Positions 27,565-61,365 of a stretch of DNA of 64,000 bases are shown here, in pieces; position 1 is the first letter of the stretch; each line of letters begins with the position of its first letter. Below the pieces are notes generated by a model. That model saw only the letters and a program-made list of their open reading frames with translations, made no database searches and had not been told where the DNA came from. A program made the translations under genes and the position numbers. Source of the stretch: a phage; sequence record PZ386958.1; one strand, given 5' to 3'.

Positions 27565-28056
27565 ATGAATAAGGGTTATTTTGAAAAATACCTAATATAT
27601 GAACCAGATACAGGTTTATTAATTTGGAGAGTAACCCTTTGCAGTACCGCTATTGCTGGTAATGTGGCTGGCACAAGGTCTAAGAAGGGTTATATCCAAG
27701 TCCAGATAAATAAGAAGAGGTACTATGCACATAATATTGCATGGATTATGTCTGGAGGTGAGATACCAAGTGGATATGAGGTAGACCACATAGACCTTGA
27801 TAAAGCTAATAATAAGTTGGAGAACTTAAGACTTAGCACAAAGTCACAAAATCAGAGGAATAGAGGTATATACAAGAATAATAAAACTGGTGTGAAGGGT
27901 GTAAGTTTTTGTAAACAAACAGGTCTTTACAAAGCAAGAGTCATGCTTTACCATAAAGAATACTTTTGTGGAAGATTTAAAACGGTAGAAGAAGCAAAAG
28001 AAGCTGTAATTAAAAAGCGAATAGAACTTCATGGTGAGTTTGCAAGACATAACTAA
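27565..28056 (+). CDS. HNH homing endonuclease with AP2-type domain
   Basis: 163 aa; paralog of 14752-15252 (YEPDTGLLIWRV ... TGVKGVSFCKQTGLYKARV); inserted between Prs-like and NAMPT-like genes. Confidence 0.6.
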   Translation: MNKGYFEKYLIYEPDTGLLIWRVTLCSTAIAGNVAGTRSKKGYIQVQINKKRYYAHNIAWIMSGGEIPSGYEVDHIDLDKANNKLENLRLSTKSQNQRNRGIYKNNKTGVKGVSFCKQTGLYKARVMLYHKEYFCGRFKTVEEAKEAVIKKRIELHGEFARHN

Positions 28057-28070
28057 GAGAGAGATAAAAT

Positions 28071-29852
28071 ATGAGTAAGTCACTTTACGCAGTACCAGCA
28101 GGTCTTAATGCAGATGCTTACAAGGCATCACATATATATCAGTATCCAGATGCTACGCAATATCTTATGTTGAACCTGACACCACGTAGTGACAAATGGT
28201 TTAACAGTCCCTTAGCAATTGATGGTGTAGTGGCTTTTGGTATTCAACGTTTTGTTAAAGATTACTTGATAGACCACTGGAATACCACCTTCTTTGAACG
28301 TGACAAAAAAGAAGCAATTGACGAAATCTTAGAAGTCATGAATGGTGTTCTGGGTAAAGATGCTATTGGTCGAGAACATTGGGAAGCACTTCACGACTTA
28401 GGTTATCTACCAGTTGAAGTATACGCTGTAGAAGAAGGCACAGTTGTCCCTATGCGTGTACCAATGATTGTCTTCCAGAACACTGTTTCGGGTTTCCATT
28501 GGGTAGCGGGGTATCTGGAAGATGCTTTCTCTGCTGAGATTTGGAAGGCTTGTACCATTGCAACTATTGCATTGCACTACAAACGTATCTGTAAGAAGTG
28601 GGCTGACCTTACTTGTGACAACGCCTTACATTTACCTTACCAGTGCCATGACTTTGCCATGCGTGGTATGTCTGGCTTTACTGATGACGCATTTAACGCT
28701 GTAGGTCACTTAACCAGCTTTAAAGGGACTGATAGCTTCCCTGCTGTGTATACAGCTAAACGCATCTATGGACAGTCCTACCCAATCTCTGATATTGGTA
28801 GTTCTGTACCAGCCACTGAACACTCTGTAATGTGTGCAAACATTGCTTGGGAAGGTGGTAACGAGTTGATTGAAGAAGAAAGACGCTTTAAAGGTGAGTT
28901 ACAAACCTTCCGTCGTTTCTTAACAGAGACTTACCCGACTGGTATTGCAAGTGTTGTTTCAGACACTTATAACTTCTGGAGAACTGTATCAGTCATATTA
29001 CCAGAACTCCGTAAAGAGATTATGGAACGTGATGGAAAACTGGTAATTCGTCCTGACTCTGGAGACCCTGTACATATTGTCACAGGCTATAAAGCAATCC
29101 ACTTAGAGTGTGCTAAAAAGGCTTATTACGAACACCTAAGCAAGCTGGAAGCCAGCGACACAATGTTGAATGCTGTTCTGAACATGAAGCTTGAAAACAT
29201 CAATTATGGTATTGCTGGATGGCTATTGTCAGAAGGCTACGAAATGGTTGTTGACAGAGAAGACTTTGAAGTTGCTGATACAGTGCTGTTGAAAAATGCT
29301 TATATGGTTGGTTCTGCAAACGTTGTAACACGTCCTGTAGCGGAGATTGATGGAGCTATCAAGACACTGTATAACATCTTTGGAGGAACTATCAACGCTA
29401 AAGGTTTTAAAGTACTGGATGAGCATATCGGACTTATTTATGGTGACTCTATCACGTTGGAACGTGCAAACGAAATCCTGAAGCGTTTGTATGAAATGGG
29501 TTTTGCAAGCTCTAACGTAGTGTTTGGTGTAGGTTCTTACACTTACCAGTACATGACTCGTGACACCTTTGCATTTGCTGTCAAAGCAACTCTTGCAAGC
29601 ATTGGTGGTAAAGAGATTATGCTTGCAAAAGACCCTAAAACAGATAGCGGTGTTAAGAAGTCTGCTTTTGGTGGTGTAGCACCTATGTGGGATGGTGATA
29701 AACTGAAAGCTGTAGATGGCTATGGATTCCAGAGCTTTGCAGATGTGCTTGAACATCCAGCTTGTGCTTTACGTTTAGTCTTTAGCGACTCTGAGCAGTT
29801 CGGTTACACAACTCTTGGTGATATTCGAAATAATATTGACAAGCAACTTTAA
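28071..29852 (+). CDS. Nicotinamide phosphoribosyltransferase (NAMPT)-family protein
   Basis: 593 aa; N-terminal YKASHIYQYPD..T and overall architecture resemble NAMPT/NadV; longer than typical. Confidence 0.65.
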   Translation: MSKSLYAVPAGLNADAYKASHIYQYPDATQYLMLNLTPRSDKWFNSPLAIDGVVAFGIQRFVKDYLIDHWNTTFFERDKKEAIDEILEVMNGVLGKDAIGREHWEALHDLGYLPVEVYAVEEGTVVPMRVPMIVFQNTVSGFHWVAGYLEDAFSAEIWKACTIATIALHYKRICKKWADLTCDNALHLPYQCHDFAMRGMSGFTDDAFNAVGHLTSFKGTDSFPAVYTAKRIYGQSYPISDIGSSVPATEHSVMCANIAWEGGNELIEEERRFKGELQTFRRFLTETYPTGIASVVSDTYNFWRTVSVILPELRKEIMERDGKLVIRPDSGDPVHIVTGYKAIHLECAKKAYYEHLSKLEASDTMLNAVLNMKLENINYGIAGWLLSEGYEMVVDREDFEVADTVLLKNAYMVGSANVVTRPVAEIDGAIKTLYNIFGGTINAKGFKVLDEHIGLIYGDSITLERANEILKRLYEMGFASSNVVFGVGSYTYQYMTRDTFAFAVKATLASIGGKEIMLAKDPKTDSGVKKSAFGGVAPMWDGDKLKAVDGYGFQSFADVLEHPACALRLVFSDSEQFGYTTLGDIRNNIDKQL

Positions 29853-29865
29853 AAGTATATGATAA

Positions 29866-29889
29866 GAGGCTCCTACGGGAGCCTTTTTA
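29866..29889 (+). terminator. Intrinsic terminator (gaggctcctacgggagccttttt)
   Basis: Stem-loop plus T-run. Confidence 0.6.
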
Positions 29890-29905
29890 ATTTCTGGAGA
29901 AGATT

Positions 29906-35817: not shown

Positions 35818-35834
35818 AATTTCAAGGAGTATTA

Positions 35835-36719
35835 ATGAAACCAATGTTCAAATATCTTGGTGGTAAAACAAGAATATTAAAAGAGTATGAGCGTTTAGGT
35901 GTCTTTCCAGACAACTGTAAAAACTTCTATGACCTGTTTTCAGGTGGTGGTTCAGTAGCTATCTGGGCTTATAACAGATACCCAGAGGCAAAAGTGTTTA
36001 TTAATGAGATAAATAAACATATTATAGGTCTTTACACAACTTTCAGAGATGACTATGAAAACTTCATGGAAGAATTTGAGTACTTGTCAAAGAGGTACTT
36101 AGCCTTACCTATGCAGGAAGAGTATGCCGTGAAAGGCCAGCGTCATAACCGTCTACGCTATAAAATGTATTACAGTGTAAGAGAAGAACTTCTTTTGCTT
36201 GGTGAAGAAGGAACATATGACTACAGGTACTATGCCAGACAGTTTTTCCTTCAAAAACTAAGTTTTGGTGGAGTATGGCAGACTACTAAAGAGATGAGAG
36301 GTCACTATGCAACACCTTGTGGGTATTTACTGGAAGAAGAGATTTTCTTCACAAAAACTAAAAAATCACTATCCGAGTTTTACAGTTTTATCACCGATGA
36401 AAGGGTAATACTTAGCAGTGAACCTTATGACAGGGTTGACATAAAACATGGAGAAGACACAGTTATTTACTGTGACCCTCCATATATCAACACCAACCAG
36501 AAATATGGTGTAAAGTTTGACATTGAGATGTCTGTAAAATTATGCGAAGATATGGTTTCTTGGGGGGAGTTAGGCTCTAAAGTTTTGATGTCAAACTCTC
36601 AGTGGGATGGATGGGCAAACCTAATTCCTGAAAATTTTAACTTGACAGAGGTTAGTCATTCATACACAATACATGCACAGAGAAGCAAAGATATTAGCGA
36701 AGTAATTATTCACAACTAA
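35835..36719 (+). CDS. DNA N6-adenine methyltransferase (Dam-like)
   Basis: 294 aa; N-terminal FKYLGGK and catalytic DPPY (VIYCDPPYINT). Confidence 0.65.
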   Translation: MKPMFKYLGGKTRILKEYERLGVFPDNCKNFYDLFSGGGSVAIWAYNRYPEAKVFINEINKHIIGLYTTFRDDYENFMEEFEYLSKRYLALPMQEEYAVKGQRHNRLRYKMYYSVREELLLLGEEGTYDYRYYARQFFLQKLSFGGVWQTTKEMRGHYATPCGYLLEEEIFFTKTKKSLSEFYSFITDERVILSSEPYDRVDIKHGEDTVIYCDPPYINTNQKYGVKFDIEMSVKLCEDMVSWGELGSKVLMSNSQWDGWANLIPENFNLTEVSHSYTIHAQRSKDISEVIIHN

Positions 36720-36730
36720 GGTATCAAGTT

Positions 36731-37543
36731 ATGGCAAACAGCATCAATGTAGCACTGAATGGCAAGGTTGTTAAAATTCACACTAAGATTATCAGTGTCG
36801 AGGATTTTCTTAATGAAAAACGTTACAAAGAAAACCCTCGTCAACGAAATACACTTAAGCGTCTGAAAAGCAAACACCTTAATGGTGACGTATCACCAGA
36901 CCAAACAGTAGTTCATGTGGCTAAGTTCGGTAGTTCACTGTTCATCATTGATGGGCACTCACGTCGAGAGGCATGGAAAGTTGGTAACCTGACACGACCA
37001 GAAAACTTGATTGCAGTTATATACCATGTGAACTCCATATTGGATGTCACAGATTTGTACACTCATTTTGACTCTGAGTTAGCAAGAGAAAAACCTTCAG
37101 AAGTTTATTACGGAAATATGAAGATGATTTCTTTCAACCCAGAGTCAGAACTGATGAAAGCATCTTGGGCAACTGCTATTAAGTATGTTGCTGCATATTA
37201 CGGTGTGCAACAAGTCTCTAACACTGAAACAGTTAAATACCTTAATGACTTTAAAAATGAGCTGGAACAAATTGATTCTCTTGAAGTACAGCTTAAAGGT
37301 GTAGTAAACGCAAAACGGAAGTATTCTTCTGGGATTCGTGCAGCAATGTTAATTACACTACGCCTATATGGTGATGCTGCATTTTCCTTTTGGGAAGACT
37401 ATAATGACTACTGTGAAGGTATGTCTAACAAATATGTTACAGAGGCATACCAACTTGCATTACAAGCTGGTCGCGGAGCACAGGCTGATAAGTTGTTGAT
37501 GAATCAAGCGATTTCACTTGTCAACTATTACAGTCAAGAATAA
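36731..37543 (+). CDS. ParB/Srx-like nuclease domain protein
   Basis: 270 aa; FIIDGHSRREAW resembles ParB-type DGxHR motif. Confidence 0.4.
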   Translation: MANSINVALNGKVVKIHTKIISVEDFLNEKRYKENPRQRNTLKRLKSKHLNGDVSPDQTVVHVAKFGSSLFIIDGHSRREAWKVGNLTRPENLIAVIYHVNSILDVTDLYTHFDSELAREKPSEVYYGNMKMISFNPESELMKASWATAIKYVAAYYGVQQVSNTETVKYLNDFKNELEQIDSLEVQLKGVVNAKRKYSSGIRAAMLITLRLYGDAAFSFWEDYNDYCEGMSNKYVTEAYQLALQAGRGAQADKLLMNQAISLVNYYSQE

Positions 37544-40404: not shown

Positions 40405-40611
40405 ATGCTTTACAGTCGCGAATTGATGGTTACAACTAACGTTAACACAAAGGCAAAACGTTTTTACATGCAAATCTGTGGCGTATGGTCCAGAATATCA
40501 GAAGCTGACTATTGCAACTATGTAGAAACGGCTATTAATTCTAATTGCTATCTGACAAGAAATACAAGAAAGTACATAAGACAGACAGCAATTTACTACT
40601 ACGATAAATAA
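40405..40611 (+). CDS. Cassette-array small protein
   Basis: 68 aa; followed immediately by repeat unit. Confidence 0.4.
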   Translation: MLYSRELMVTTNVNTKAKRFYMQICGVWSRISEADYCNYVETAINSNCYLTRNTRKYIRQTAIYYYDK

Positions 40612-40697
40612 AGTACTTTACAATGGGCTTATAGTTCGATAAAGTAAGCCCCAGATAAAGAGCTTTACCACTCAATCCTAAATTGGAGAACTAAAAA
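40609..40697 (+). repeat. Cassette repeat unit, class A (hairpin GGGCTTAT..ATAAGCCCC plus RBS)
   Basis: TAAAGTACTTTACAATGGGCTTATAGTTCGATAAAGTAAGCCCCAGATAAAGAGCTTTACCACTCAATCCTAAATTGGAGAACTAAAAA; begins at stop codon of upstream gene. Confidence 0.7.
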
Positions 40698-41078
40698 ATG
40701 GCATATCGTGCACCTAAATTCATCAACAAAGACAACTTTCGCAACGCACTGGAGAAGTCACTTGATGAAAATTTTAAAGGTAACATTATTGTTGTTCACT
40801 CGTTTAATTTCAAGTATGATATCAACGGGAATAGAATCAACCATTACACGGCAACCATGTTAGATGGCACACTATCAAGTGAAAAAGCCGTACTGAATGC
40901 ACTTGCTGGACGTGGTAAAAACCTGATAAAATGCGATAAGAGACGTTATCAGGGTGGCGCATATGGTTATGATGATGCTGTTTATCATCTTGAAAATATG
41001 GGCTATCAAGTAGAAAAAGCTGGAGTGTCTCAAATAATCGGTAGTGATGGTTATGTAACAATCTTCAAAATTAAATAA
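40698..41078 (+). CDS. Cassette-array small protein
   Basis: 126 aa. Confidence 0.4.
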   Translation: MAYRAPKFINKDNFRNALEKSLDENFKGNIIVVHSFNFKYDINGNRINHYTATMLDGTLSSEKAVLNALAGRGKNLIKCDKRRYQGGAYGYDDAVYHLENMGYQVEKAGVSQIIGSDGYVTIFKIK

Positions 41079-41164
41079 AGTACTTTACAAGGGGCTTATA
41101 GTTCGATAAAGTAAGCCCCAGATAAAGAGCTTTACCACTCAATCCTAAATTGGAGAACTAAAAA
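41076..41164 (+). repeat. Cassette repeat unit, class A
   Basis: Near-identical to 40609-40697. Confidence 0.7.
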
Positions 41165-41422
41165 ATGGCTATTATCAAAAACGTTGTAATTGCTGCAAAA
41201 ACTCGTGATGACGCTCGCGTTATGGCTAAAAAGTTATGCGGAAAAGTGGTTGACAACGGAAAACAATCTGCTGTAAGGTGGGGCGTGAAGGCTGATAAAC
41301 AGTTAACTTTAAAACGCAGTTCAAACAACCTTTTTAAAGGTGTAAAATCACTCGGTAAAGTGAACGTTTTTACCAAAAAAGGCTATAAAATGCACTTATC
41401 ATTAACTGGCAATTTAATCTGA
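41165..41422 (+). CDS. Cassette-array small basic protein
   Basis: 85 aa. Confidence 0.4.
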   Translation: MAIIKNVVIAAKTRDDARVMAKKLCGKVVDNGKQSAVRWGVKADKQLTLKRSSNNLFKGVKSLGKVNVFTKKGYKMHLSLTGNLI

Positions 41423-41510
41423 TAAAGTACTTTACAAGGGGCTTAAAAGTTGATATCTTAAGCCCCAGATAAAGAGCTTTACCACTAAATCCTAAACTGG
41501 AGATTCAAAA
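41420..41510 (+). repeat. Cassette repeat unit, class A variant
   Basis: Hairpin GGGGCTTAAAAGTTGATATCTTAAGCCCC then CAGATAAAGAGCTTTACCACTAAATCCTAAACTGGAGATTCAAAA. Confidence 0.65.
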
Positions 41511-42023
41511 ATGAAAACTGTAGACGCTACCTTTGAAGTTGTAAAAGAAAAATTCACCATTATTTATGAAGCTGTCAATTGCTTTGAAGCAAGCCATAAT
41601 CTTGATAATTGGAAGTTTACAGATGACCATCAAGGCGGTGTGACGATTAAAAATCCTAACTGTCAGCGTAATGATTTTAAATATGCAATTCCTTTAAATT
41701 ATAGCCTTAAGCAGCTTTCTAGTGACTATGCAAAACAAGGCCGGGAAAACCCATCAAAAGAGGCTTATATCAGCTTACAGAAAGAACTAGAAAGAGATTT
41801 AGAGGCTTCAGAGTACAACCTTGCCGCGAAAGTTGTGGATGCAAACGGTAACACGGTTTTAGAAAGTTTTTATCTTGGTTATGCTTTCGATTGGTGCTAT
41901 CGTGACGGCGATGATTTAGAGGATAGACTAAAAGAAGAGGTGAGCAATTCAGACGCAGAAACTGAAGTATTAGAACGTTTGGAATCGTTGAAAGACTCAG
42001 TGATGAATATCTTTAAGAACTAA
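41511..42023 (+). CDS. Cassette-array protein (acidic)
   Basis: 170 aa. Confidence 0.4.
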   Translation: MKTVDATFEVVKEKFTIIYEAVNCFEASHNLDNWKFTDDHQGGVTIKNPNCQRNDFKYAIPLNYSLKQLSSDYAKQGRENPSKEAYISLQKELERDLEASEYNLAAKVVDANGNTVLESFYLGYAFDWCYRDGDDLEDRLKEEVSNSDAETEVLERLESLKDSVMNIFKN

Positions 42024-42115
42024 ATAGATTTCTTTACACGGGGCTAACAAGCTGATATAATAGCCCCAGATAAAGAGATTTATCAAATAAAACCCTTAAA
42101 CTAGGAGATTCTAAA
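42021..42115 (+). repeat. Cassette repeat unit, class A variant
   Basis: Hairpin GGGGCTAACAAGCTGATATAATAGCCCC then CAGATAAAGAG...CTTAAACTAGGAGATTCTAAA. Confidence 0.6.
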
Positions 42116-42412
42116 ATGAAATTATCAAATCAAGTGCGTGAAAATCTGAGCAAATTACTCAACAAAATTGATTTCATTGAAACATCAAGAAATAGTCATG
42201 ATGTTATGGAATGGTTACACGGCAAAATAAAAGGCCGTCGTGTAGTGATTTGTTTATGGAATAGTTGCAGGGAGTATAAAAAACCTGTATTGCAAGTAAA
42301 TATTTATGATGATACTTTTAAAAGTCCAGTAAAGTCTAAAAGCGATTTATTAGAATCCTATGAGATAACTTTAAATGGCAAAGTATCACGTAAAGAGGAA
42401 ACACCATGTTAA
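42116..42412 (+). CDS. Cassette-array small protein
   Basis: 98 aa. Confidence 0.4.
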   Translation: MKLSNQVRENLSKLLNKIDFIETSRNSHDVMEWLHGKIKGRRVVICLWNSCREYKKPVLQVNIYDDTFKSPVKSKSDLLESYEITLNGKVSRKEETPC

Positions 42413-42738
42413 TGACTGGTATCACTGCAATCATTGCCATTTTCGCGCTATATAAGGCATATAAAGCCTATAATCTAGCAAATAAGGCAATCACACAGCA
42501 GGTTAGCAATAACCTTGTAGAAAGCTTTCTAGGGCGCCTCAGTGATGAGCAAATAAAGCGGCTAGAGATGAGCTTTAGATTTAAAGCGAAAACCTATCAG
42601 ATTAGTGACATTTTCAAAGATGACTATCAACTTATTGATGATTATAATTCACTGATAAACGCTTTAAATATCAGTGACTTAAAAGACTACTACGCTGTAA
42701 TTGTTCAAGAATTGAGCAAACGAAAACAAAGTGTTTGA
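42406..42738 (+). CDS. Cassette-array small membrane protein
   Basis: 110 aa; N-terminal hydrophobic helix; overlaps previous stop. Confidence 0.4.
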   Translation: MLMTGITAIIAIFALYKAYKAYNLANKAITQQVSNNLVESFLGRLSDEQIKRLEMSFRFKAKTYQISDIFKDDYQLIDDYNSLINALNISDLKDYYAVIVQELSKRKQSV

Positions 42739-42827
42739 CACTGATTTTTAGATAGGCTAAATTACACATCAACGGGGAGGGAATGACCTTCCCCACTAAA
42801 TAAAGTCCTAAACTGGAGATTCTGAAA
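42736..42827 (+). repeat. Cassette repeat unit, class B (TTGACA box plus GGGGAGGGAATGACCTTCCCC hairpin plus RBS)
   Basis: TGACACTGATTTTTAGATAGGCTAAATTACACATCAACGGGGAGGGAATGACCTTCCCCACTAAATAAAGTCCTAAACTGGAGATTCTGAAA. Confidence 0.7.
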
Positions 42828-43100
42828 ATGTATACTACTAACAACGGTCGCACCTTAAATGTCACCTTGCGTCACTATGTAGACGGTGTGATGTGCTTTG
42901 AAGATTTACGGGCTGAGCAACACATCTTAAATTGGCAAGTTGCAGGACTCCAAAAAACTGCTACAGGATACGGGAAAAAGATTCCAACCAGTTGGAAAGT
43001 ATACTACGAAGGACGTTTGCGCAGAATTTATCAGGATGTGCAAAGCAATAGTGCATCTAGTTACATCATAGTAAAAGGTAAAAAGCTGCATTTAGTATAA
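42828..43100 (+). CDS. Cassette-array small protein
   Basis: 90 aa. Confidence 0.4.
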   Translation: MYTTNNGRTLNVTLRHYVDGVMCFEDLRAEQHILNWQVAGLQKTATGYGKKIPTSWKVYYEGRLRRIYQDVQSNSASSYIIVKGKKLHLV

Positions 43101-43186
43101 AGTACTTTACAAGGGGCTTATAGTTCGATAAAGTAAGCCCCAGATAAAGAGCTTTACCACTCAATCCTAAATTGGAGAACTAAAAA
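43098..43186 (+). repeat. Cassette repeat unit, class A
   Basis: Near-identical to 40609-40697. Confidence 0.7.
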
Positions 43187-43591
43187 ATGGCTATTAATAA
43201 CCGTGAATTATCAATTTTAAAAGCACGTTTGACCGTTAACCGGATTAATGTTATCACATCATCAGCACCAGATAAAACACTGCAAAACATTATTGGGAAG
43301 ATTCAAAGTGTTATCTTAGACGTTGAAAGCGTAAAAAATTCATTGGCTGACGTTGCAGCAGGTATCACACTAGACGGTGCGCAATATGAAATGTCCGACA
43401 TGTTAGGCAAATCTAAGGTAATGAATATAGAGTTAGATTTGAAAATGTTCCGATTTGCTGTTAAAGTGTGGCTATCTGTCGAGTATGATGCTAACTTTGC
43501 AATCGCTGACTTTTTCGCCACTTGGTTGCAGCGTAATTTGACTAATCATGACTTCCGCGATATCTGTGATGCAATTTATGCAGAACTCTAA
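43187..43591 (+). CDS. Cassette-array protein
   Basis: 134 aa. Confidence 0.4.
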   Translation: MAINNRELSILKARLTVNRINVITSSAPDKTLQNIIGKIQSVILDVESVKNSLADVAAGITLDGAQYEMSDMLGKSKVMNIELDLKMFRFAVKVWLSVEYDANFAIADFFATWLQRNLTNHDFRDICDAIYAEL

Positions 43592-43699
43592 AAAAAAAAA
43601 AATTTTGTTGACACTGATTTTTAGATAGGCTAAATTACACATCAACGGGGAGGGAATGACCTTCCCCACTAAATAAAGTCCTAAACTGGAGATTCAAAA
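43589..43699 (+). repeat. Cassette repeat unit, class B (preceded by A13 run)
   Basis: Identical core to 42736-42827. Confidence 0.7.
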
Positions 43700-43903
43700 A
43701 TGGCTATTATTAATGGTTTAACCATTGAAACTACACACATCAAAGATGTCAAAGTTGGTGATATAGTCCTTTCCCACGGCGTAGAAAAAACTGTCACTGC
43801 AAAGGATATCAAAGAGGATTCTTTCATGGGTAGGACTCTCTTCGGTGATTCTTATTGCTTAGGCTATCTTGCAGTTTTAAAAGTTGTCAAAAATAACAAA
43901 TAA
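43700..43903 (+). CDS. Cassette-array small protein
   Basis: 67 aa. Confidence 0.4.
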   Translation: MAIINGLTIETTHIKDVKVGDIVLSHGVEKTVTAKDIKEDSFMGRTLFGDSYCLGYLAVLKVVKNNK

Positions 43904-43990
43904 AGTACTTTACAAGGGGCTTATAGTTCGATAAAGTAAGCCCCAGATAAAGAGCTTTACCACTCAATCCTTAAACTAGGAGATTCAAAA
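43901..43990 (+). repeat. Cassette repeat unit, class A
   Basis: Near-identical to 40609-40697 (3' part CCTTAAACTAGGAGATTCAAAA). Confidence 0.7.
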
Positions 43991-44239
43991 ATGATGAACT
44001 ATTTCAATATCCCTGATACCTGCCGACTGTTGACACAAGAAGAAAATTTGGGTAAACCTTTTCTTTACCACATGCCAGATAGCACACCAAAAACTTATAG
44101 TTACAATGTTAACCGTTTTACCGCATACGCTGCAAAGAACGGTTATAAGTTGGTTACTCAAAAAGTAATGCTGGTTACAAGCGCTGACGAGATTCCTACG
44201 GTTGCAGTTAAACTAATTTTCTCAAAGAAAGTTAAATAA
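43991..44239 (+). CDS. Cassette-array small protein
   Basis: 82 aa. Confidence 0.4.
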   Translation: MMNYFNIPDTCRLLTQEENLGKPFLYHMPDSTPKTYSYNVNRFTAYAAKNGYKLVTQKVMLVTSADEIPTVAVKLIFSKKVK

Positions 44240-44326
44240 AGTACTTTACAGGGGGCTTATAGTTCGATAAAGTAAGCCCCAGATAAAGAGCTTTACCACT
44301 CAATCCTTAAACTAGGAGATTCAAAA
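44237..44326 (+). repeat. Cassette repeat unit, class A
   Basis: Near-identical to 43901-43990. Confidence 0.7.
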
Positions 44327-44868
44327 ATGAAATGTTTTCACGGTACTACTCAAGAAAATTTCCTCAACCTTATTAATAACGGTGATAAACCATCAGGCGC
44401 ATGGAATTGTTCTGATATGGATGGGAATTTTTACGTTTACCAGAGAATAAAATCTATGGCGACGATGAGGAAGAAATAATCTTTGAAGGTATCCAGCAAG
44501 CTCTGGGCAATGCCACTATCACCGCAGCTTTTCAGATGAAAACTCAAAACATTGTTATCTTGGAACTTGAGATTCCAGAAGATGAGCTAAACGATGATTA
44601 TTCTTGTGATAATATGTCGAGCGTGGCAAGTTTTACAGAATATTTCGATTTAAATTGGATTAAAAAGGTTTACATCACTGAATTTAATGCTATGTATTCG
44701 CCTTTTTGTCTTCCTTCACTGGATAACCCAAATATGAATTATCTTGATGAGACATTAGAACTACTTGCTAAAAGTGTTCAACAATCGGACAGTATTCAGG
44801 TTTTTTGTGACATCATGGACACACTAACGGAAAACATCGCAGAAGAGGATTTAAAGAGCTTTTTCTAA
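44327..44868 (+). pseudogene. Cassette gene split across two frames (frameshifted gene or programmed -1 frameshift candidate)
   Basis: ATG at 44327 opens a 50-codon frame (MKCFHGTTQENFLNLINNGDKPSGAWNCSDMDGNFYVYQRIKSMATMRKK) that stops at 44479; the -1 frame is open from about 44393 to the stop of the track ORF 44536-44868; no repeat unit between the parts. Confidence 0.4.
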
Positions 44869-44899
44869 AAACCTATGCAATCACCTTATAAACACTATT

Positions 44900-44920
44900 C
44901 AGCCCCTTGTAGGGGCTTTT
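44900..44920 (+). terminator. Hairpin (cagccccttgtaggggctttt)
   Basis: GC stem followed by T-run. Confidence 0.45.
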
Positions 44921-44934
44921 AAGAGGCTTAAATC

Positions 44935-45168
44935 ATGCTTACAACCGTTTATCTTATCCTTTCTATATGTAATGGTCATTCATGCGATTTTAAAGGGCTT
45001 GAAGAGTTTACAGGAAGTAAAGAAAATGCTATTCAAGTTTGCCAGATAGCGAGACAAGACTACCCCGCCAGTGATGACATACAATGCTACTTTAAGACAG
45101 AAGATGAAGACGGTATCTATTTCGATAGTGTAGATGGTCAATATGAAATAATTATAGAAAAAGACTAG
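44935..45168 (+). CDS. Cassette-array small protein
   Basis: 77 aa. Confidence 0.4.
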   Translation: MLTTVYLILSICNGHSCDFKGLEEFTGSKENAIQVCQIARQDYPASDDIQCYFKTEDEDGIYFDSVDGQYEIIIEKD

Positions 45169-45257
45169 ACAAGCCTGATAAAAATCTGTAAATTATCAAT
45201 CAACGGGGAGGGGATGACCTTCCCCACTAAATAAAATCCTAAACTGGAGATTCTAAA
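45166..45257 (+). repeat. Cassette repeat unit, class B variant
   Basis: ...ATCAATCAACGGGGAGGGGATGACCTTCCCCACTAAATAAAATCCTAAACTGGAGATTCTAAA. Confidence 0.65.
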
Positions 45258-45599
45258 ATGGCTTATGTAACTGTAATTACCAATAAAGAAAATTCATCTT
45301 GGTCAACTCAAGTCAGTGATAAGATGTCACCTATGCAGTGCCTAAAATACTTTGAGCAGTGGAACAAAGGCGAGGATGTCAGCCCCTTTCAAGTAATGCA
45401 GATTATCCATACAGATAACGAAGGAAACAAAACGACACTTAATAGCGAGTATTACGCAAATCGTTTTGAGAGTCGAGTTGAAACGATGAAGGGGCTGCGT
45501 GAGGCCGGATATGGGCACATTGCCGCCTTGTTATGGGATAGCCTGCTAAAAAATCAGCGTATCAGCTATGTAAAACCTGAAAAAATATTCATCAGTTAA
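45258..45599 (+). CDS. Cassette-array protein
   Basis: 113 aa. Confidence 0.4.
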   Translation: MAYVTVITNKENSSWSTQVSDKMSPMQCLKYFEQWNKGEDVSPFQVMQIIHTDNEGNKTTLNSEYYANRFESRVETMKGLREAGYGHIAALLWDSLLKNQRISYVKPEKIFIS

Positions 45600-45628
45600 T
45601 CAACAACTTACAAAAAACTTTTAAAAAA

Positions 45629-45665
45629 GTGTTGACAATACCCCTTGACATTGGTAACTTTGTTC
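45629..45665 (+). promoter_or_regulatory. Promoter-like tandem TTGACA boxes (gtgttgacaataccccttgacattggtaact)
   Basis: Two -35-like hexamers in intergenic region. Confidence 0.35.
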
Positions 45666-45749
45666 GAGGGGGTTTATCTAAAAGGGATTCACTTAAAAGA
45701 TTCTTTATAGATAAGCTCAAAAAATTACTTGCAATCAACTATCAAAACA

Positions 45750-45819
45750 AGTAAATTACTAATCAACGGGGAGGGATAACCTCCCTACTAAGTAAAGTCC
45801 TTAAACTAGGAGATTCAAA
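45750..45819 (+). repeat. Cassette repeat unit, class C (GGGGAGGGATAACCTCCC hairpin plus RBS)
   Basis: GTAAATTACTAATCAACGGGGAGGGATAACCTCCCTACTAAGTAAAGTCCTTAAACTAGGAGATTCAAA. Confidence 0.65.
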
Positions 45820-46350
45820 ATGAACAAGTTCAAAGCTATCAACTTCATTCGTTCAAATGCTGTAATGTCAAAGCCTGTTAAAGATACCTATGAATTTCGT
45901 TGCAATGGTGTACACTTTGCAACCATCACTAAATCAGAAAACGGGGCTTATTACGTCCATCGTCGTAATGTTTCTACTGTTGTAGTTTCTCATTTTATGC
46001 AAGCTGTCGCGGAACTTCTCCCGATGTTTTTAGGTCTTTACTTAGATGAGTGTAAAAACGTTCACAACCACGTTAAAAACCTTTTAAACGGTTATAAAAT
46101 GGCTTATGAACGTTCTATCAAGTCACTAAACAAGTTTTACAATGCACCTGAAAATACTGTATCAATAGCCTATGCTGCAAATGGTGAGATGGTAAACTTA
46201 TCCAATGTGGAAGAAATCAAGCTGCATGATTTACGCCCTAGCGGTTACTCTAAGACTCTCGGTGAAGGTTTAACGTTCAATATCAAGAACTTAGAGAAAA
46301 CTTTAAAAGATATTGAAAAAGATATTGACGAGACAACCAAAAATCTGTAA
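45820..46350 (+). CDS. Cassette-array protein
   Basis: 176 aa. Confidence 0.4.
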   Translation: MNKFKAINFIRSNAVMSKPVKDTYEFRCNGVHFATITKSENGAYYVHRRNVSTVVVSHFMQAVAELLPMFLGLYLDECKNVHNHVKNLLNGYKMAYERSIKSLNKFYNAPENTVSIAYAANGEMVNLSNVEEIKLHDLRPSGYSKTLGEGLTFNIKNLEKTLKDIEKDIDETTKNL

Positions 46351-46416
46351 ATTGTCAATCAACGGGGAGGGAATGACCTTCCCCACTAAATAAAGTCCTA
46401 AACTGGAGTTATCAAG
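46346..46416 (+). repeat. Cassette repeat unit, class B
   Basis: CTGTAAATTGTCAATCAACGGGGAGGGAATGACCTTCCCCACTAAATAAAGTCCTAAACTGGAGTTATCAAG. Confidence 0.65.
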
Positions 46417-46680
46417 ATGGAAAACGTAGAATTAACCACACTTTTACAAATTGCAACCGATAAAGAAGACGTAGCTTTATTTCACCGCATCGAAAGTGAT
46501 TTGTTCAATGGTGAAATCATCAAAGAATCTTACGAAGTTGTCGGATTCAAAGACGGTAAAGCGTTTGGCTTTTTTGACCTCGACAAAGGCAAAGCGGTTA
46601 CAAAATATGATGTTTTATCTTGTGAAATTCTGACAAAATACAACGAAAAAAGGCTTGCAACATACGCCAATATGCAGTAA
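46417..46680 (+). CDS. Cassette-array small protein
   Basis: 87 aa. Confidence 0.4.
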   Translation: MENVELTTLLQIATDKEDVALFHRIESDLFNGEIIKESYEVVGFKDGKAFGFFDLDKGKAVTKYDVLSCEILTKYNEKRLATYANMQ

Positions 46681-46746
46681 ATTACTAATCAACGGAGAGG
46701 GATAACCTCCCTACTAAGTAAAGTCCTTAAACTAGGAGATTCAAAA
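46678..46746 (+). repeat. Cassette repeat unit, class C
   Basis: Near-identical to 45750-45819. Confidence 0.65.
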
Positions 46747-46995
46747 ATGGCAACTATCCGCGCAACTGTCAATGCTTATGGCTGTTATACTCTGGATGTT
46801 AAATTCGATATTGGTGGGACTGACGAGTGTTTTTCATTAGTGAAGACAGTTATCAAGCAAGTTATCCCAGATTATAACCCTACTGATGACTTCTGGAAAG
46901 ACGCCGTAAAAGAGGCATTAAACGACGAGCATCACTATCATTACTGGGGTGACTTGATTATCTCACTGTACTACAATAAACAAGGTTACAACTAA
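46747..46995 (+). CDS. Cassette-array small protein (last gene of rightward block)
   Basis: 82 aa. Confidence 0.4.
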   Translation: MATIRATVNAYGCYTLDVKFDIGGTDECFSLVKTVIKQVIPDYNPTDDFWKDAVKEALNDEHHYHYWGDLIISLYYNKQGYN

Positions 46996-47060: not shown

Positions 47061-48720
47061 GTCTATGTAATAACCTCTATACAATCCCTTTCCTTTCCTT
47101 TCCAGAATCTATCCCACTAATTCGATAGAATCTATCTCGTACCTTAAAAAGCAATAACTCTATAGTCTACTCTATAACCTTTTATCAAATCAACTTAAAT
47201 ATAAGCCCATAACCCGAAAGGGAAGGGCAACCGTTTAAACGCTCTATAAAGCCCTATAACAGCCTTATCAACCTAACTTAAGGGATTGCATTAACTCACC
47301 CTTAAAAGCTCTTTACAGGGCTTTATAGAGGCTTAAAAGAATCTTATAAGGTTATAAGCTTTATTATCTCGTTAGTATCTTGTGAATATCTAAAAAGGGC
47401 TTGTTAGTGTCTTAAAAGTATGTTATAGGGGCTTAAAAGTTACTTTGAAGTAGCTTAAAAGTTACGTAAAAGGGGCTATAAAGTTACGTAAATACTAGCC
47501 CCCTTAACATTTTCTTAACAATTTCTTAACAAACCCTACATAGTTATACTTTTAAGGCACTTGTTAGCAACTTGTTAGCCCCTTGTTAAATCTCTGTTAA
47601 GACCACGTAAAAGCCTTGTAAGAGTCTTTGACATAGCCTTTAAAGCTCCTGTAAAGCCCTATAAAGAGCTTTCTTCATAGTTGGGGTGTAATTACTAGGA
47701 AGAGGCTTAAAAGAGCTTACAAAGAGCTATAGAGAGCTTTTAAGAGGTATGTTTAGAGAATCACTAAGAGGGAAAGGGAACGATAAGAAAAGAGATAGTG
47801 ACCATGTTAACAGCTTGTTAAAAAGATTAAACACTTGTTAGAAACTTGTTAATTATCTTAATTGGTATTGTTACCAATCCCTACAAAATAACTCTTAAAA
47901 ATTAACTTGTTAGCTCTTGTTAGTCATCTGTTAAGATTCTGTAAAGACTATGTATCAACTGTTAAGAAACTGTTACACCCTTGTTAGTTCTGTTAAGAAT
48001 CTGTTAAGACCTTTGAAGAGTTGTTAAGAAGGTGTGAGAACTGTTAAGAGATTGTTAATGATATTTTAAAATTTTGCAAAGGGGGTGTTAAGGAGCTGTT
48101 AAGGGCTACCAAGCAGATATACATCTTCTACAGATATTTTTCAGTTCCTTCAAAGACCATAAAAAATGACTTGACAGTCTTATTTTATAAAAATTTTAAG
48201 ATTCTGAATAATTACCTATACAGTCTTTCAAAAATACAGGTAGGAACAGGCTTATAAGATACCTTGTTAGTACCGTGTTAGACCTTGTGAGATAAGGTCT
48301 GTAAAGATATTCCTGTTAAGTTTATTAAAACAGTCTATATAGAGGCTTAGTAATACCTAGTGAACAACTATAGAGAGTCACATAGCTAACCTAATGGGTT
48401 ACTGTTAAGTAACACAGGTAACCTAGAGATTAAGAGGTGTATAGGAGCTTCTAAGAGGCTATAGAGAGATGGTTAAGGTGATTGTATAGGTTGTTAAGAA
48501 GGCTTGTTAGAGGGCTTGTTAGAAGGGTTATACAGAGGGCTATTAAGACCACTAGATAGCTACTAAGATACTATATAGTACTATATAACTATATAGAGAG
48601 TAAGATTAAGAAGGTTGTTAAGAAGGATAGATATTTTGTTCACATATGATGGTGACCCAGAGGTTGGGACAACCGATAAAATTTTATAAAAAATATAAAT
48701 TTCGTAAATTTTACTCAATA
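47061..48720. repeat. Non-coding repeat-dense region: 30 or more degenerate copies of (C/T)TGTTA(A/G) plus purine-rich AGAG/TAAGAG and TATATAG runs
   Basis: No ORF of 60 aa or more on either strand; motifs CTTGTTAG, CTGTTAAGA, GGGCTTAAAAGTTAC recur throughout, often in tandem. Confidence 0.6.
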
Positions 48721-51273: not shown

Positions 51274-51935
51274 TCTTTCACCGTAGCATTTCTGAACTGA
51301 CGTTGAGTTTCTCTTGTAATTTCGTCTGGAGTAAACCCTGCTTTCAGCATATCTCTGAAAAGAACTTCTAAATGGTTCCTCTCAATGATGTAAATGGCAT
51401 TCTGAATAGCTGTTTTGCGCTCCTTCAGGTCACTACTAATCTCTTCGCACTTACTGGTAAGTTCTGTGTCAGTTTTCTTATAGACTGGCATAACATGTGC
51501 GTAGCAACCTTTATTAGTCTCCATGAAAAATTTAAAAGATTCCTCAGAGTCCTTTAAAGCAATACCTATAAAGTTCTTGTAAGCACCTGTGAAAGATAAG
51601 GACTCAATCTCAGCAGTCGAGTATACAGTTCCAGCACACAGTCTTGCAGAAGTACTAAATGTGTGGTTTGGTGTTGTGTCAAAGTCTAAGTTCTTCAGTG
51701 GCCTGAAATAAACAATACCGTTGTGTGAGATATGTGTTACAACAGCCTCAACACTCTTTGACGGATTCTGTTTAACGTACAAAATTATTTTATCTTTTTC
51801 TTTCACTGTAGCCATATATTCTCCAGAAACTAAAAAGGGAACTACCTCTCGATAGCTCCCATCATAATCAATATTGTATACTCGGTCAAGAGTATTTTTT
51901 AGGCAGTAATGCGCTACGCTTGTTACTCTCTTCAC
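51270..51935 (-). CDS. Hypothetical protein
   Basis: 221-aa ORF. Confidence 0.4.
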   Translation of the reverse strand: MKRVTSVAHYCLKNTLDRVYNIDYDGSYREVVPFLVSGEYMATVKEKDKIILYVKQNPSKSVEAVVTHISHNGIVYFRPLKNLDFDTTPNHTFSTSARLCAGTVYSTAEIESLSFTGAYKNFIGIALKDSEESFKFFMETNKGCYAHVMPVYKKTDTELTSKCEEISSDLKERKTAIQNAIYIIERNHLEVLFRDMLKAGFTPDEITRETQRQFRNATVKE

Positions 51936-58689: not shown

Positions 58690-58766
58690 CTCTGTTTAGC
58701 TCAGCTTGGTAGAGCGTTCCGTTTGGGGCGGTAAGGCCGGAGGTTCAAGTCCTCCAACAGAGACCA
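58690..58766 (+). tRNA. tRNA-Pro (anticodon TGG)
   Basis: Acceptor CTCTGTT/AACAGAG, T-arm GGAGG-TTCAAGT-CCTCC, loop TTTGGGG, 3' CCA encoded. Confidence 0.6.
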
Positions 58767-58773
58767 AATTAAT

Positions 58774-58851
58774 GTTCCAGTAGACAAAATGGTATAGTCA
58801 CCACTCTTTCAAAGTGGATATCTGAGGGTTCAAATCCCTTCTGGAACGCCA
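58774..58851 (+). tRNA. tRNA-Glu (anticodon TTC)
   Basis: Acceptor GTTCCAG/CTGGAAC, anticodon stem CCACT/AGTGG loop CTTTCAA, T-loop TTCAAAT, CCA encoded. Confidence 0.6.
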
Positions 58852-58857
58852 GTTTTG

Positions 58858-58931
58858 ACAGAAGACCAATTACAGCAAACTTAATCTTATTCATCTGAAG
58901 GTAAATCGGACAAAGAAGAGATTTGGTCTGG
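58858..58931 (+). ncRNA. Bracket stem-loop element a (ACAGAAGACCaatTACAGCAA ... tTTGGTCTGG)
   Basis: 5' AGACCAA pairs with 3' TTGGTCT; conserved TACAGCAA; one of four copies with compensatory changes. Confidence 0.45.
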
Positions 58932-58942
58932 TCATTAAGAAT

Positions 58943-59019
58943 TGCGGGTATAGAGAAAGGGCGTCTCACATGTCTCATTAGCATGGTATCGGCAGGTTCG
59001 ACTCCTGCACCCGCCTCCA
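58943..59019 (+). tRNA. tRNA with CAT anticodon (Met or Ile-lysidine)
   Basis: Anticodon stem CATGT/GCATG loop CTCATTA; T-arm GCAGG-TTCGACT-CCTGC; 1-72 mismatch; CCA encoded. Confidence 0.5.
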
Positions 59020-59024
59020 AATTT

Positions 59025-59090
59025 ACAGAAGACCGTTTACAGCAATATTTATTAAATTTTTAGCGGAAAAATTGAAAGATACGGTCTGGT
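59025..59090 (+). ncRNA. Bracket stem-loop element b
   Basis: ACAGAAGACCGTTTACAGCAA ... ACGGTCTGG; AGACCGT pairs with ACGGTCT. Confidence 0.45.
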
Positions 59091-59102
59091 AATACTAAAC
59101 AT

Positions 59103-59179
59103 GGTTAGGAAGCACATAAGGTATGTGCGGTCGCCTGTTAAGCGAATGGCACAGGGTTCGAATCCCTGACTAACCGCCA
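59103..59179 (+). tRNA. tRNA-Asn (anticodon GTT)
   Basis: Loop CTGTTAA; T-arm CAGGG-TTCGAAT-CCCTG; acceptor 3' ACTAACC-G-CCA. Confidence 0.55.
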
Positions 59180-59248
59180 AATTTAGGAGAGAAGCGATTG
59201 CTCACCGATTTGTAAGGTGCAAGTCCTTAGCCTGAATAGAAATTAAAT

Positions 59249-59336
59249 GTGTCGTTATCCCGTAGATGGTAGCGGTGGGGACTGTAAATCCCTTGTCATT
59301 GAGACTCGGTAGGTTCTACTCCTACACGGCACACCA
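59249..59336 (+). tRNA. tRNA-Tyr (anticodon GTA), long variable arm
   Basis: 88 nt; anticodon stem GGGGA/TCCCT loop CTGTAAA; acceptor GTGTCGT/ACGGCAC; CCA encoded. Confidence 0.55.
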
Positions 59337-59341
59337 ATAAA

Positions 59342-59419
59342 GGTTATGTAGTTTAATTTGGTTAAAATACTCCCCTGTCACGGGAGATGATGAGGGTTCA
59401 AATCCCTTCGTAACCGCCA
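59342..59419 (+). tRNA. tRNA-Asp (anticodon GTC)
   Basis: Anticodon stem CTCCC/GGGAG loop CTGTCAC; T-arm GAGGG-TTCAAAT-CCCTT; CCA encoded. Confidence 0.6.
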
Positions 59420-59450
59420 ATTTTGAGAGGGCTATTTAGCCCCTCCCTTA

Positions 59451-59478
59451 AATGGTTCTTACGAGTATCCTTTAAAGG
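59451..59478 (+). ncRNA. Conserved small hairpin GGTTCTTACGAG(T/A)(A/G)TCCTT(T)AAA (copy 1)
   Basis: Second copy at 62447-62474. Confidence 0.3.
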
Positions 59479-59480
59479 AG

Positions 59481-59553
59481 CAGAAGACCAAATACAGCAA
59501 GAACGTATGAAATTTCAAGCCAATTTAATTTTGAAAATTTAAACTTGGTCTGG
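59481..59553 (+). ncRNA. Bracket stem-loop element c
   Basis: CAGAAGACCAAATACAGCAA ... CTTGGTCTGG. Confidence 0.45.
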
Positions 59554-59565
59554 CTCAACAAATTT

Positions 59566-59698
59566 ACAGAAGACCGTCTACAGCAAAACTTAAACAATCT
59601 ATTTCTCCGGTAAAGAAAAGGCGAAGGTTCGATTCCTTCACTCGGCAGATGTCGAGTTGGTGTAATGGTAGCACTTAAGATGATAAACAACGGTCTGG
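59566..59698 (+). ncRNA. Bracket element d enclosing a permuted tRNA-like module (T-arm, acceptor-like hairpin, D-arm); candidate Y-RNA-like ncRNA
   Basis: Closing stem AGACCGT(C)/ACGGTCT; inside: GAAGG-TTCGATT-CCTTC, hairpin ACTCGGC-AGAT-GTCGAGT, then TGGTGTAATGGTAGCAC; no anticodon arm. Confidence 0.45.
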
Positions 59699-59701
59699 TA
59701 A

Positions 59702-59841
59702 TTATCTTTGTAGATAAGTTATTAAGCTTACCTGTGAGTATGCGACCACAAAGGGTGAAAGGGTAAATTCTAGATTTAAACCCAAAAAGGCACATCGCTA
59801 CAGACCTTAAGCAAGTCTGGGTAGCTTATCTACAAAGATAA
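59702..59841 (+). ncRNA. Structured element closed by a perfect 17-bp inverted repeat (TTATCTTTGTAGATAAG / CTTATCTACAAAGATAA)
   Basis: Enclosed ~106 nt has internal hairpins (CAGACCTTAAGCAAGTCTG; AGCTTACC...GGTAGCTT); no ORF. Confidence 0.4.
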
Positions 59842-59847
59842 TTTAAT

Positions 59848-59923
59848 GGAAGTGTAGCAGAATGGTGATGCGGCAGACTTTTAATCTGACAGGCGATGGG
59901 TTCGAATCCCTCCACTTCTACCA
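59848..59923 (+). tRNA. tRNA-Lys (anticodon TTT)
   Basis: Acceptor GGAAGTG/CACTTCT; D-loop AGCAGAATGGTGATGC; loop CTTTTAA; T-loop TTCGAAT; CCA encoded. Confidence 0.55.
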
Positions 59924-59927
59924 AAAT

Positions 59928-60004
59928 GGTTCAGTCGCAGATAAGGTAATGCAGGGGTCTCATAAGCCCTATGAATGTGGGTTCGATTCCCATCTGAACC
60001 TCCA
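59928..60004 (+). tRNA. tRNA with CAT anticodon (second copy; Met or Ile-lysidine)
   Basis: Acceptor GGTTCAG/CTGAACC; anticodon stem GGGGT/GCCCT loop CTCATAA; T-loop TTCGATT; CCA encoded. Confidence 0.5.
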
Positions 60005-60006
60005 AT

Positions 60007-60081
60007 TGTGGGTTAGCATAAATGGTAATGCAAACGGCTGATAACCGTTAGAAGAGGGTTCGATACCCTCACCTACAACCA
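60007..60081 (+). tRNA. tRNA-Ile (anticodon GAT)
   Basis: Anticodon stem AACGG/CCGTT loop CTGATAA; T-arm GAGGG-TTCGATA-CCCTC; CCA encoded. Confidence 0.6.
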
Positions 60082-60095
60082 ATTTCAATAAAGTT

Positions 60096-60130
60096 GTTGA
60101 CATTAAGATGTGACTACTTTATAGTAACCT
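60096..60130 (+). promoter_or_regulatory. Sigma70-like promoter inside tRNA cluster (gttgacattaagatgtgactactttatagtaacc)
   Basis: TTGACA - 17 nt - TATAGT. Confidence 0.5.
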
Positions 60131-60328
60131 TAGTTTTCGTTGCGTAGCGTCTATTTTGCAAATTTAAAATAAATGCAAACGACAATGTTTTTCTGGCAGT
60201 AGCTTGATAGGCTAAACACCAGTGAGGTCTTCCAATCCCTCATCAAAGAATTTGGCGTACTCGCCCACGGTATGATTAATAAGGTGGGCATCTTTAAGGG
60301 CTTTCTAAGAGAGTCTTTAAAGATTAAT

Positions 60329-60403
60329 GCTCCGTTAGTCTAAAGGATAGGCATCTGTCTTCTAAACAGATTGATATAGGTTCGAGTCCTATACGGAGTG
60401 CCA
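60329..60403 (+). tRNA. tRNA-Arg (anticodon TCT)
   Basis: Acceptor GCTCCGT/ACGGAGT; anticodon stem TCTGT/ACAGA loop CTTCTAA; T-loop TTCGAGT; CCA encoded. Confidence 0.6.
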
Positions 60404-60519
60404 TATTTAGAGTGTCTCCAAATGGAGGTGGTCTGTATCTCATGTTTTCCAGAACATGTAAATAATCTGAGAAGGGGCTTTACAGTGTTGAGATAATACG
60501 GTAAGCTTCGAATTATAAT

Positions 60520-60602
60520 ATGGGACGATGTTAAGACTCTAAGGCATGAGCAACGGCTTCCAACACCGTTTCAAAGGGGTTCAACTCCTCCGTCCCATGC
60601 CA
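60520..60602 (+). tRNA. Atypical 83-nt tRNA (possible anticodon CCA, Trp) or tRNA-like gene
   Basis: Acceptor ATGGGAC/GTCCCAT and T-arm AGGGG-TTCAACT-CCTCC clear, CCA encoded; D/anticodon region too long and folds ambiguously. Confidence 0.35.
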
Positions 60603-60615
60603 AAGTCTTATTAGG

Positions 60616-60703
60616 GGTAGGTAGCGGCTAATGGTAGCCAAACTGTCTTGAAAACAGTTGCCACTGTAGAGATACGGTGAGGGTTCGACTCCTTTACTTA
60701 CCG
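60616..60703 (+). tRNA. tRNA-Ser (anticodon TGA), long variable arm; CCA apparently not encoded
   Basis: Anticodon stem ACTGT/ACAGT loop CTTGAAA; long extra arm; T-arm GAGGG-TTCGACT-CCTTT; acceptor 3' ACTTACC-G then CCT. Confidence 0.45.
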
Positions 60704-60859
60704 CCTAATAAGATTTTAAAGCCAAGCTTCATTCGGATGTTGCTTTGGCATCCCTCGTGTTGTCGTACACACTAATAAAGCACCTAGTAGGTGTCATGGA
60801 GAAGAGATAATATCAAGCTCTCCAAAGGTTCTAGTCACCGGATTAAACAAGACTATGCA

Positions 60860-60880
60860 AAGACCAATTTAGGTCTTTTT
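60860..60880 (+). terminator. Hairpin plus T-run (aagaccaatttaggtcttttt)
   Basis: Stem AGACC/GGTCT followed by TTTTT within tRNA cluster. Confidence 0.45.
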
Positions 60881-60959
60881 AGAGGGCTTCTAAGGTTATT
60901 ACAGCTTGTTGTGGAACCTTGTTGCTTAGGTTCTTAGAAGTTCTCTAAAAAGATTTAAT

Positions 60960-61036
60960 GCACCTATAGCCCAACTGGTAGAGGCAGCAGACTTAGAATC
61001 TGCTCAGTGTGAGTTCGAATCTCTCTAGGTGTACCA
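60960..61036 (+). tRNA. tRNA with anticodon TAG (Leu-decoding), short variable arm
   Basis: Acceptor GCACCTA/TAGGTGT; anticodon stem GCAGA/TCTGC loop CTTAGAA; T-loop TTCGAAT; CCA encoded. Confidence 0.45.
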
Positions 61037-61043
61037 AATTAAT

Positions 61044-61119
61044 GCAGGTGTAGCAGAATGGTGATGCGGCTGACTCTTAATCAGTAAGACGATGGGTTCA
61101 ATTCCCTCCACCTGTACCA
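61044..61119 (+). tRNA. tRNA-Lys (anticodon CTT)
   Basis: Paralog of 59848-59923; loop CTCTTAA; acceptor GCAGGTG/CACCTGT; CCA encoded. Confidence 0.55.
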
Positions 61120-61125
61120 AACATT

Positions 61126-61201
61126 GGGGATGTAGTTTACATGGTTAAAACATAAGTTTTGCAAACTTAAGTACAGGGTTCAATTCCCTGCTTCTCCACC
61201 A
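61126..61201 (+). tRNA. tRNA-Ala (anticodon TGC)
   Basis: Anticodon stem TAAGT/ACTTA loop TTTGCAA; G3:U70 wobble in acceptor; T-arm CAGGG-TTCAATT-CCCTG; CCA encoded. Confidence 0.55.
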
Positions 61202-61207
61202 ATTAGT

Positions 61208-61282
61208 GCATCCATAGTTTAAACGGGAAAATTACAGTCTTCCAAACTGAGGTTGAGGGTTCGATTCCCTCTGGATGCTCCA
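61208..61282 (+). tRNA. tRNA-Gly (anticodon TCC)
   Basis: Acceptor GCATCCA/TGGATGC; loop CTTCCAA; T-loop TTCGATT; CCA encoded. Confidence 0.6.
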
Positions 61283-61288
61283 AATAAA

Positions 61289-61365
61289 GCTGCTTTCGTA
61301 TAATTGGCTATTACACATCCCTTGTAAGGATGGAAATGCAGGTTCGAGTCCTGTGAGCAGCACCA
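61289..61365 (+). tRNA. tRNA-Thr (anticodon TGT)
   Basis: Acceptor GCTGCTT/GAGCAGC; anticodon stem CATCC/GGATG loop CTTGTAA; T-loop TTCGAGT; CCA encoded. Confidence 0.6.

Follow-up and report, generated by a model that had tools for sequence, protein, structure and literature searches.

The question raised by positions 44327-44868 of phage record PZ386958.1 is whether two overlapping reading frames, both on the plus strand, represent one damaged gene, one gene expressed through a programmed frameshift, or two separate genes. The window, by which we mean the whole 64,000-nt stretch of DNA that was analysed, is a Felix O1-like myovirus genome (Ounavirinae, Felixounavirus). Translation showed that the ATG at 44327 opens a frame of 50 codons closed by a TAA at 44477-44479 (the 5′ fragment, 44327..44479), as an earlier, sequence-only reading of the locus had stated. 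That reading also described the -1 frame as open from about 44393 to 44868. The frame does run to the TAA at 44866-44868 and does hold the 110-aa ORF of the mechanical ORF list (44536..44868), but a TGA at 44413-44415 had been missed, and the frame is without stops only from 44416. The productive overlap in which a shift could join the two frames is 44416-44479, or 64 nt.

The locus matched 288 phage records, the best of them at ~91-94% identity; the window's own record was not among them. LMP25, REP5 and PHB11 each have one annotated CDS of 543 nt (180 aa) at the same position, and the corresponding stretch of the window, 44327-44868, is 542 nt long. An intact ORF of 180 or 185 aa was present in all 24 of the IMG/VR loci encoding a homologue (24/24), and tblastn gave a single-frame match in 60/60 records drawn as an even sample of the 372 tblastn-positive phage genomes. 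Full-length proteins accounted for 37 of the 39 protein clusters found, one of which holds 716 member sequences. Among the 180-aa alleles the median pairwise dN/dS was 0.064, indicating strong purifying selection. The sequence-only reading had proposed a comparison with orthologous cassettes in related phages as a check, and the relatives proved to carry a single intact CDS with one C more than the window.

The two clusters that are not full-length are alleles from ERR4623045 and from Shigella phage SFPB. In the first (Logan contig, L030:59-600), a different 1-nt deletion lies in an AAA run (CTAAAT to CTAAT) and the gene is called as 108 + 84 aa; in the second, the annotated protein (P0038) starts with 18 residues read from the wrong frame. 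The ERR4623045 and SFPB alleles are independent disruptions of the same gene. The deleted allele of the window itself was absent from 50,697 phage records when searched as a 42-mer by megablast, and from IMG/VR, metagenome contigs and genome contigs when scanned as an exact 34-mer. Neither of the window's two ORF products was found in a collection of 15 billion proteins.

In the alignment to LMP25, REP5 and PHB11 there is exactly one gap in the window, where GTTTA(C/T)CCAGAG is matched by GTTTACCAGAG. Written out, GTTTACCCAGAG in the relatives has become GTTTACCAGAG in the window, with one C fewer in the C run at 44440-44441. The 1-nt deletion site (44440..44441) was placed by the DNA alignments, by the sequence contexts of the 24 IMG/VR loci and by the blastn indel list, in which the entry stands at 44442; it falls inside the interval 44393-44479 in which a frameshift had been predicted. 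The break is at Tyr38-Pro39, a Tyr-Pro pair that is invariant in 37 close relatives. At this point the window reads CC, PHB11 (the nearest allele) reads CCC and the other relatives read TCC (TAC CCA or TAT CCA). Because a 1-nt gap occurs at a defined position against intact orthologues, the split is no chance pattern.

Alignment of the 5′ fragment to the intact orthologues divides it into authentic codons 1-38 (M1..Y38, 44327-44440) and codons 39-50 (QRIKSMATMRKK), which are out-of-frame read-through past the deletion. The indel thus breaks the frame, and the TAA at 44477-44479 is a premature stop that comes 12 out-of-frame codons on. The 3′ part, Pro39..Phe180 with its TAA, occupies the -1 frame at 44440..44868, as established by translation and by codon comparison with PHB11. 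When the C was put back, a 180-aa protein was obtained that is 99.4% identical to the PHB11 protein. The repaired gene differs from PHB11 by 4 nucleotide substitutions, all in codons 11-15, of which three are synonymous and one exchanges Leu and Ile. The 427 nt 3′ of the gap are 100% identical to PHB11, with no secondary decay. Given this near-identity, and since none of the four substitutions lies after the deletion, the lesion is either very recent or not real.

As far as can be judged from the sequence, 44327-44868 is one gene, an orthologue of Bas63 gp107, that is disrupted by a single-base deletion. The sequence-only reading had likewise proposed one gene, of about 160 aa; the single gene is upheld by the 543-nt CDS of the relatives, and the length has to be corrected to 180 codons. 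If the DNA is taken as written, one C would have been lost from the run at 44440-44441, changing TAC CCA to TAC CA. Ribosomes starting at the ATG at 44327 would then read 38 authentic and 12 wrong codons and stop at the TAA ending at 44479, and the other 142 codons would be left in the -1 frame without an initiation signal of their own. The predicted product is a 50-aa stub that would retain His5-Gly-Thr, Ser29 and Tyr36 and would lack everything from Pro39 onwards, including the long helix, the central strands and the invariant Asp91-x-Ser93-Cys94 motif. Because the stub would be without this motif and the rest of the protein from Pro39, the allele as written is probably null.

The sequence-only reading had also offered a programmed -1 shift as an option, by which ribosomal frameshifting, or slippage at a low level, would join the frames so that full-length protein is made. 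The two frames do share the 64 nt given above, and two codons within them, T-TTT at 44429 and A-AAA at 44450, would permit single-tRNA re-pairing in the -1 frame. However, a search of the overlap for X XXY YYZ heptamers found none. The gene contains a single heptamer, A AAT TTC at 44356-44362, where a shift would run into the five -1-frame stops of 44374-44415; this heptamer is not conserved, several relatives having a synonymous AAC at the codon. The RNA downstream (44440-44560, 121 nt) folds with a minimum free energy of -19.9 kcal/mol, where shuffled versions average -21.5 (z +0.47), which is no structure beyond that of shuffled sequence. The two-frame arrangement was seen in no relative; the gene is in a single frame in all relatives examined, with a local sequence equal to that of the window save for the missing base. 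Given that the relatives read this stretch in one frame, recoding has not been under selection in the past. With no heptamer in the overlap, no downstream structure and no two-frame relatives, a programmed -1 shift was rejected, and we consider it extremely improbable that the frames are joined in this way.

The reading of the 50-aa and 110-aa ORFs as two independently translated proteins was examined through the initiation signals of each. Upstream of the ATG at 44327 lies an intergenic repeat unit (44233..44326, plus strand), delimited from repeat families D1, D5, D7, D9 and D10 and from the promoter scan; a D1 copy at 44236-44335 agrees with the earlier statement that a repeat unit ends at this ATG. 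The unit contains a promoter-like site, TTTACA-17-TAAAGT, at 44245-44273 (promoter scan), a stem formed by GGGGCTTA and TAAGCCCC (about 44252-44280) that overlaps this site, and an AGGAG at 44314-44318, 8 nt before the ATG. Both ORFs begin with ATG, as separate genes would. The ATG at 44536, however, has no Shine-Dalgarno sequence (the sequence upstream is tgccactatcaccgcagcttttcag), unlike most of the neighbouring cassette genes checked, which have (A/T)GGAG 7-9 nt before the start. Between the two halves the promoter scan found no promoter-like site, and the repeat search found no repeat unit, as had been reported before. The ATG at 44536 is also the codon of Met71, an invariant internal residue of a single-domain protein that is modelled as one unit, and the 12 residues with which the 50-aa ORF ends, being out of frame, have no counterpart in any homologue. 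The 110-aa ORF was accordingly rejected as a separate gene, lacking a Shine-Dalgarno sequence and a promoter and starting at a conserved Met71, and two independent proteins have hardly any probability. A non-programmed 1-nt indel, whether it is real or a base-calling artefact, is almost certainly what splits the gene.

The earlier claim that a unit stands at every other gene boundary of the array was overstated, since ORFs 42116-42412 and 42406-42738 overlap without one. Within 40600-46800 most of the small early genes are preceded by a highly similar unit of 95-110 nt (D1, 6 copies at 79-100% identity; D2, 4 copies; D14, 2 copies at 99%). All these units are built from a promoter-like TTTACA-17-TAAAGT, a GC stem (GGGGCTTA...TAAGCCCC) that lies across the spacer of the promoter, and (A/T)GGAG as the Shine-Dalgarno sequence. 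The units resemble the promoter-stem-loop cassettes of T4-type phages. Literature searches on Felix O1 promoters and stem-loops and on Pbunavirus returned unrelated papers only. The gene that follows the split gene (ATG 44935) is unusual in having neither the standard repeat unit nor AGGAG. The spacer before it contains a GC hairpin at 44898-44920 (cagcccc ttgt aggggct), which lacks a T-run and which the terminator scan did not call.

The orthologue of the split gene in Escherichia phage JohannRWettstein (Bas63, MZ501086) is gp107 (bas63_0107, QXV81798.1). The repaired window gene is 94% identical to bas63_0107, and the genes downstream are of the same sizes in both phages. The Bas63 gene is intact, whereas the window copy is one C short and ends after 50 codons. 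On this sequence comparison the window gene belongs to the Bas63 gp107 / phrog_3303 orthologous group. In a PhageMaP study, knock-outs were recovered for most Bas63 genes, about two-thirds of which were nonessential (PMC11482910). That study singled out g107, which scored as more essential on S17-1 than on the other three E. coli hosts, BW25113, DH10B and MG1655; its knock-out was viable, with a loss of fitness only on S17-1 among the four hosts (PMC11482910). The dispensability of the gene, and a hint of its fold, are therefore already published for the Bas63 orthologue (PMC11482910).

With a non-programmed indel as the preferred reading, there remains the choice between a genuine mutation and a sequencing or assembly artefact, in which the phage would have the full 180-aa gene with CCC, one C having been lost from the consensus. 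Several results are of the kind that an artefact would give. The deleted allele is unique among the collections searched, the gap is within a homopolymer run, the sequence 3′ of it matches PHB11 completely without further decay, and the gene is intact in all other sampled relatives, under strong purifying selection. Against this, error-prone data would be expected to show several frame-breaking indels, and this one is the sole case in about 59 kb. The PHB11-alignable sequence amounts to 58.9 kb of the 64 kb (blastn), and a split across frames was unique to this locus when PHB11 stop-to-stop ORFs of at least 60 aa were compared with the window by tblastn. With only one split gene in ~59 kb, indels are no general problem of this assembly. 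Homopolymer errors are moreover little favoured by a run of three bases. The phage can tolerate a real deletion, since the gene is dispensable in a close relative, whose knock-outs are viable on ordinary laboratory strains of E. coli (PMC11482910). The other disrupted alleles, ERR4623045 and SFPB, were also counted in favour of a genuine mutation.

Weighing these points, we think it somewhat more probable than not that the deletion is a genuine, very recent loss-of-function mutation. An artefact of sequencing or assembly is the less probable reading, though a substantial one, and anything other than these two is very unlikely. On sequence alone, a real and recent null mutation looks the same as a base-calling error. 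It seems unlikely, at a stage beyond a genuine mutation, that the deletion was also selected because an NAD-using early protein was costly or defence-triggering in the isolation host. If such a selected loss were true, the phage would be a natural knock-out of a widespread, uncharacterised phage family, and the ERR4623045 and SFPB disruptions would be further instances of recurrent loss.

Further observations concern other parts of the window. The region at about 26700-29900 aligns to PHB11 68712-71419, and in relatives it encodes ribose-phosphate pyrophosphokinase and nicotinamide phosphoribosyltransferase, the enzymes of NAD+ salvage. In Bas63 the same NAD+ salvage genes, g79 and g80, counter Sir2-HerA (PMC11482910). 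These genes may be relevant if the disrupted protein, for which an ADP-ribosyltransferase-type fold is predicted (see below), uses NAD+. The stretch 47300-48700 is non-coding and contains short repeats with an 11-12-nt periodicity (of the TGTTAAGA, CTTGTTAG and GGCTTAAAAG types; D6, D8, D11 and D15). The linear PHB11 record has its two ends within this stretch (47861 corresponds to PHB11 87544, and 47893 to PHB11 position 1), which may be a terminal-repeat or origin region. ARAGORN found 25 tRNA genes clustered on the plus strand at 58690-63556, as in Bas63. Segments with no blastn counterpart in PHB11 are 35830-37532 (the largest, 1.7 kb), 14739-15243, 24943-25387, 27556-28056 and 51283-51824; accessory genes that were inserted or replaced, or homing endonucleases, may account for them.

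The repaired protein matched phrog_3303 with an E-value of 1.1e-89 over residues 1-179, a group for which the PHROGs annotation is function unknown. Sequence searches of Pfam, NCBIfam and the PDB with the repaired protein gave nothing significant, and matches to CTD12, Sak and ribosomal L16 were set aside as weak and below threshold. Searched with a profile, 1.84 billion representative proteins yielded 316 clusters at 50% identity, and nearly all of the 150 clusters listed contain proteins of ~160-240 aa. By tblastn the family ranges over Felixounavirus and over phages of Erwinia, Vibrio and Pectobacterium and PB1-like phages of Pseudomonas. Among 106 diverse members, D91 and S93 (106/106) and W26 are invariant. 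Conservation reaches at least 90% for H5 (105/106), G6 and Y36 (104/106 each), S29 (102/106), T7, C94 and M97, and N96 stands at 95/106; Glu80 is not conserved. H5, Y36 and D91 are candidate NAD-site residues.

Weak Pfam matches to PARP were obtained for 4 of these 106 members, and a weak match to Tpt1 for one. AlphaFold2 run with the 106 diverse homologues gave a model with pLDDT 96 and pTM 0.90, which supersedes an earlier, mediocre model from 37 close homologues (pLDDT 69). The fold matches in BFVD are uncharacterised proteins. On this high-confidence model, the assignment of an ADP-ribosyltransferase-type fold to the protein is solid. Catalytic competence and a substrate are putative. A literature search on Felixounavirus together with ADP-ribosyltransferase found no papers.

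For annotation, the locus is best entered as a single disrupted orthologue of Bas63 gp107; neither a recoding site nor a pair of proteins (50 aa and 110 aa) should be listed. Should the deletion prove real, the isolate offers a natural null mutant of an early gene that matters under certain conditions. H5, W26, S29, Y36, D91, S93, C94 and M97, together with the fold, are targets for functional tests. The case as a whole is an ordinary one: a known early gene, dispensable under some conditions, carries either a single-base deletion or an error.

Compared with known recoding systems, the locus shares with the lambda G/GT tail chaperone genes and with dnaX sites the presence of overlapping frames, the downstream one being in -1. 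Sites of the lambda G/GT and dnaX type have a conserved slippery heptamer, a two-frame layout that is kept across relatives, and two products that are both functional; the window locus has none of these. Among proteins with the predicted fold, the Tpt1/KptA RNA 2'-phosphotransferase aligns through its NAD-binding (ADP-ribosyltransferase) lobe only, over 77 residues. The N-terminal RNA-binding lobe of Tpt1/KptA, which carries the Arg-His-Arg-Arg catalytic tetrad, has no match in the window protein. PF01885 did not match the window protein, and it matched one of the 106 members at an E-value of 0.0054, below the curated threshold. Membership of Tpt1/KptA was therefore rejected, the NAD lobe alone matching and PF01885 giving no match. 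The ADP-ribosyltransferases of bacteria and phages (heat-labile enterotoxin A, pertussis toxin S1, Rhs TreX/TreTu, DarT, Arr and AcrIF11) stand at only 3-16% sequence identity to the protein. The best-conserved motif of its family, D91-x-S93-C94-x-N96-M97, differs from the canonical R-S-E or H-Y-E elements.
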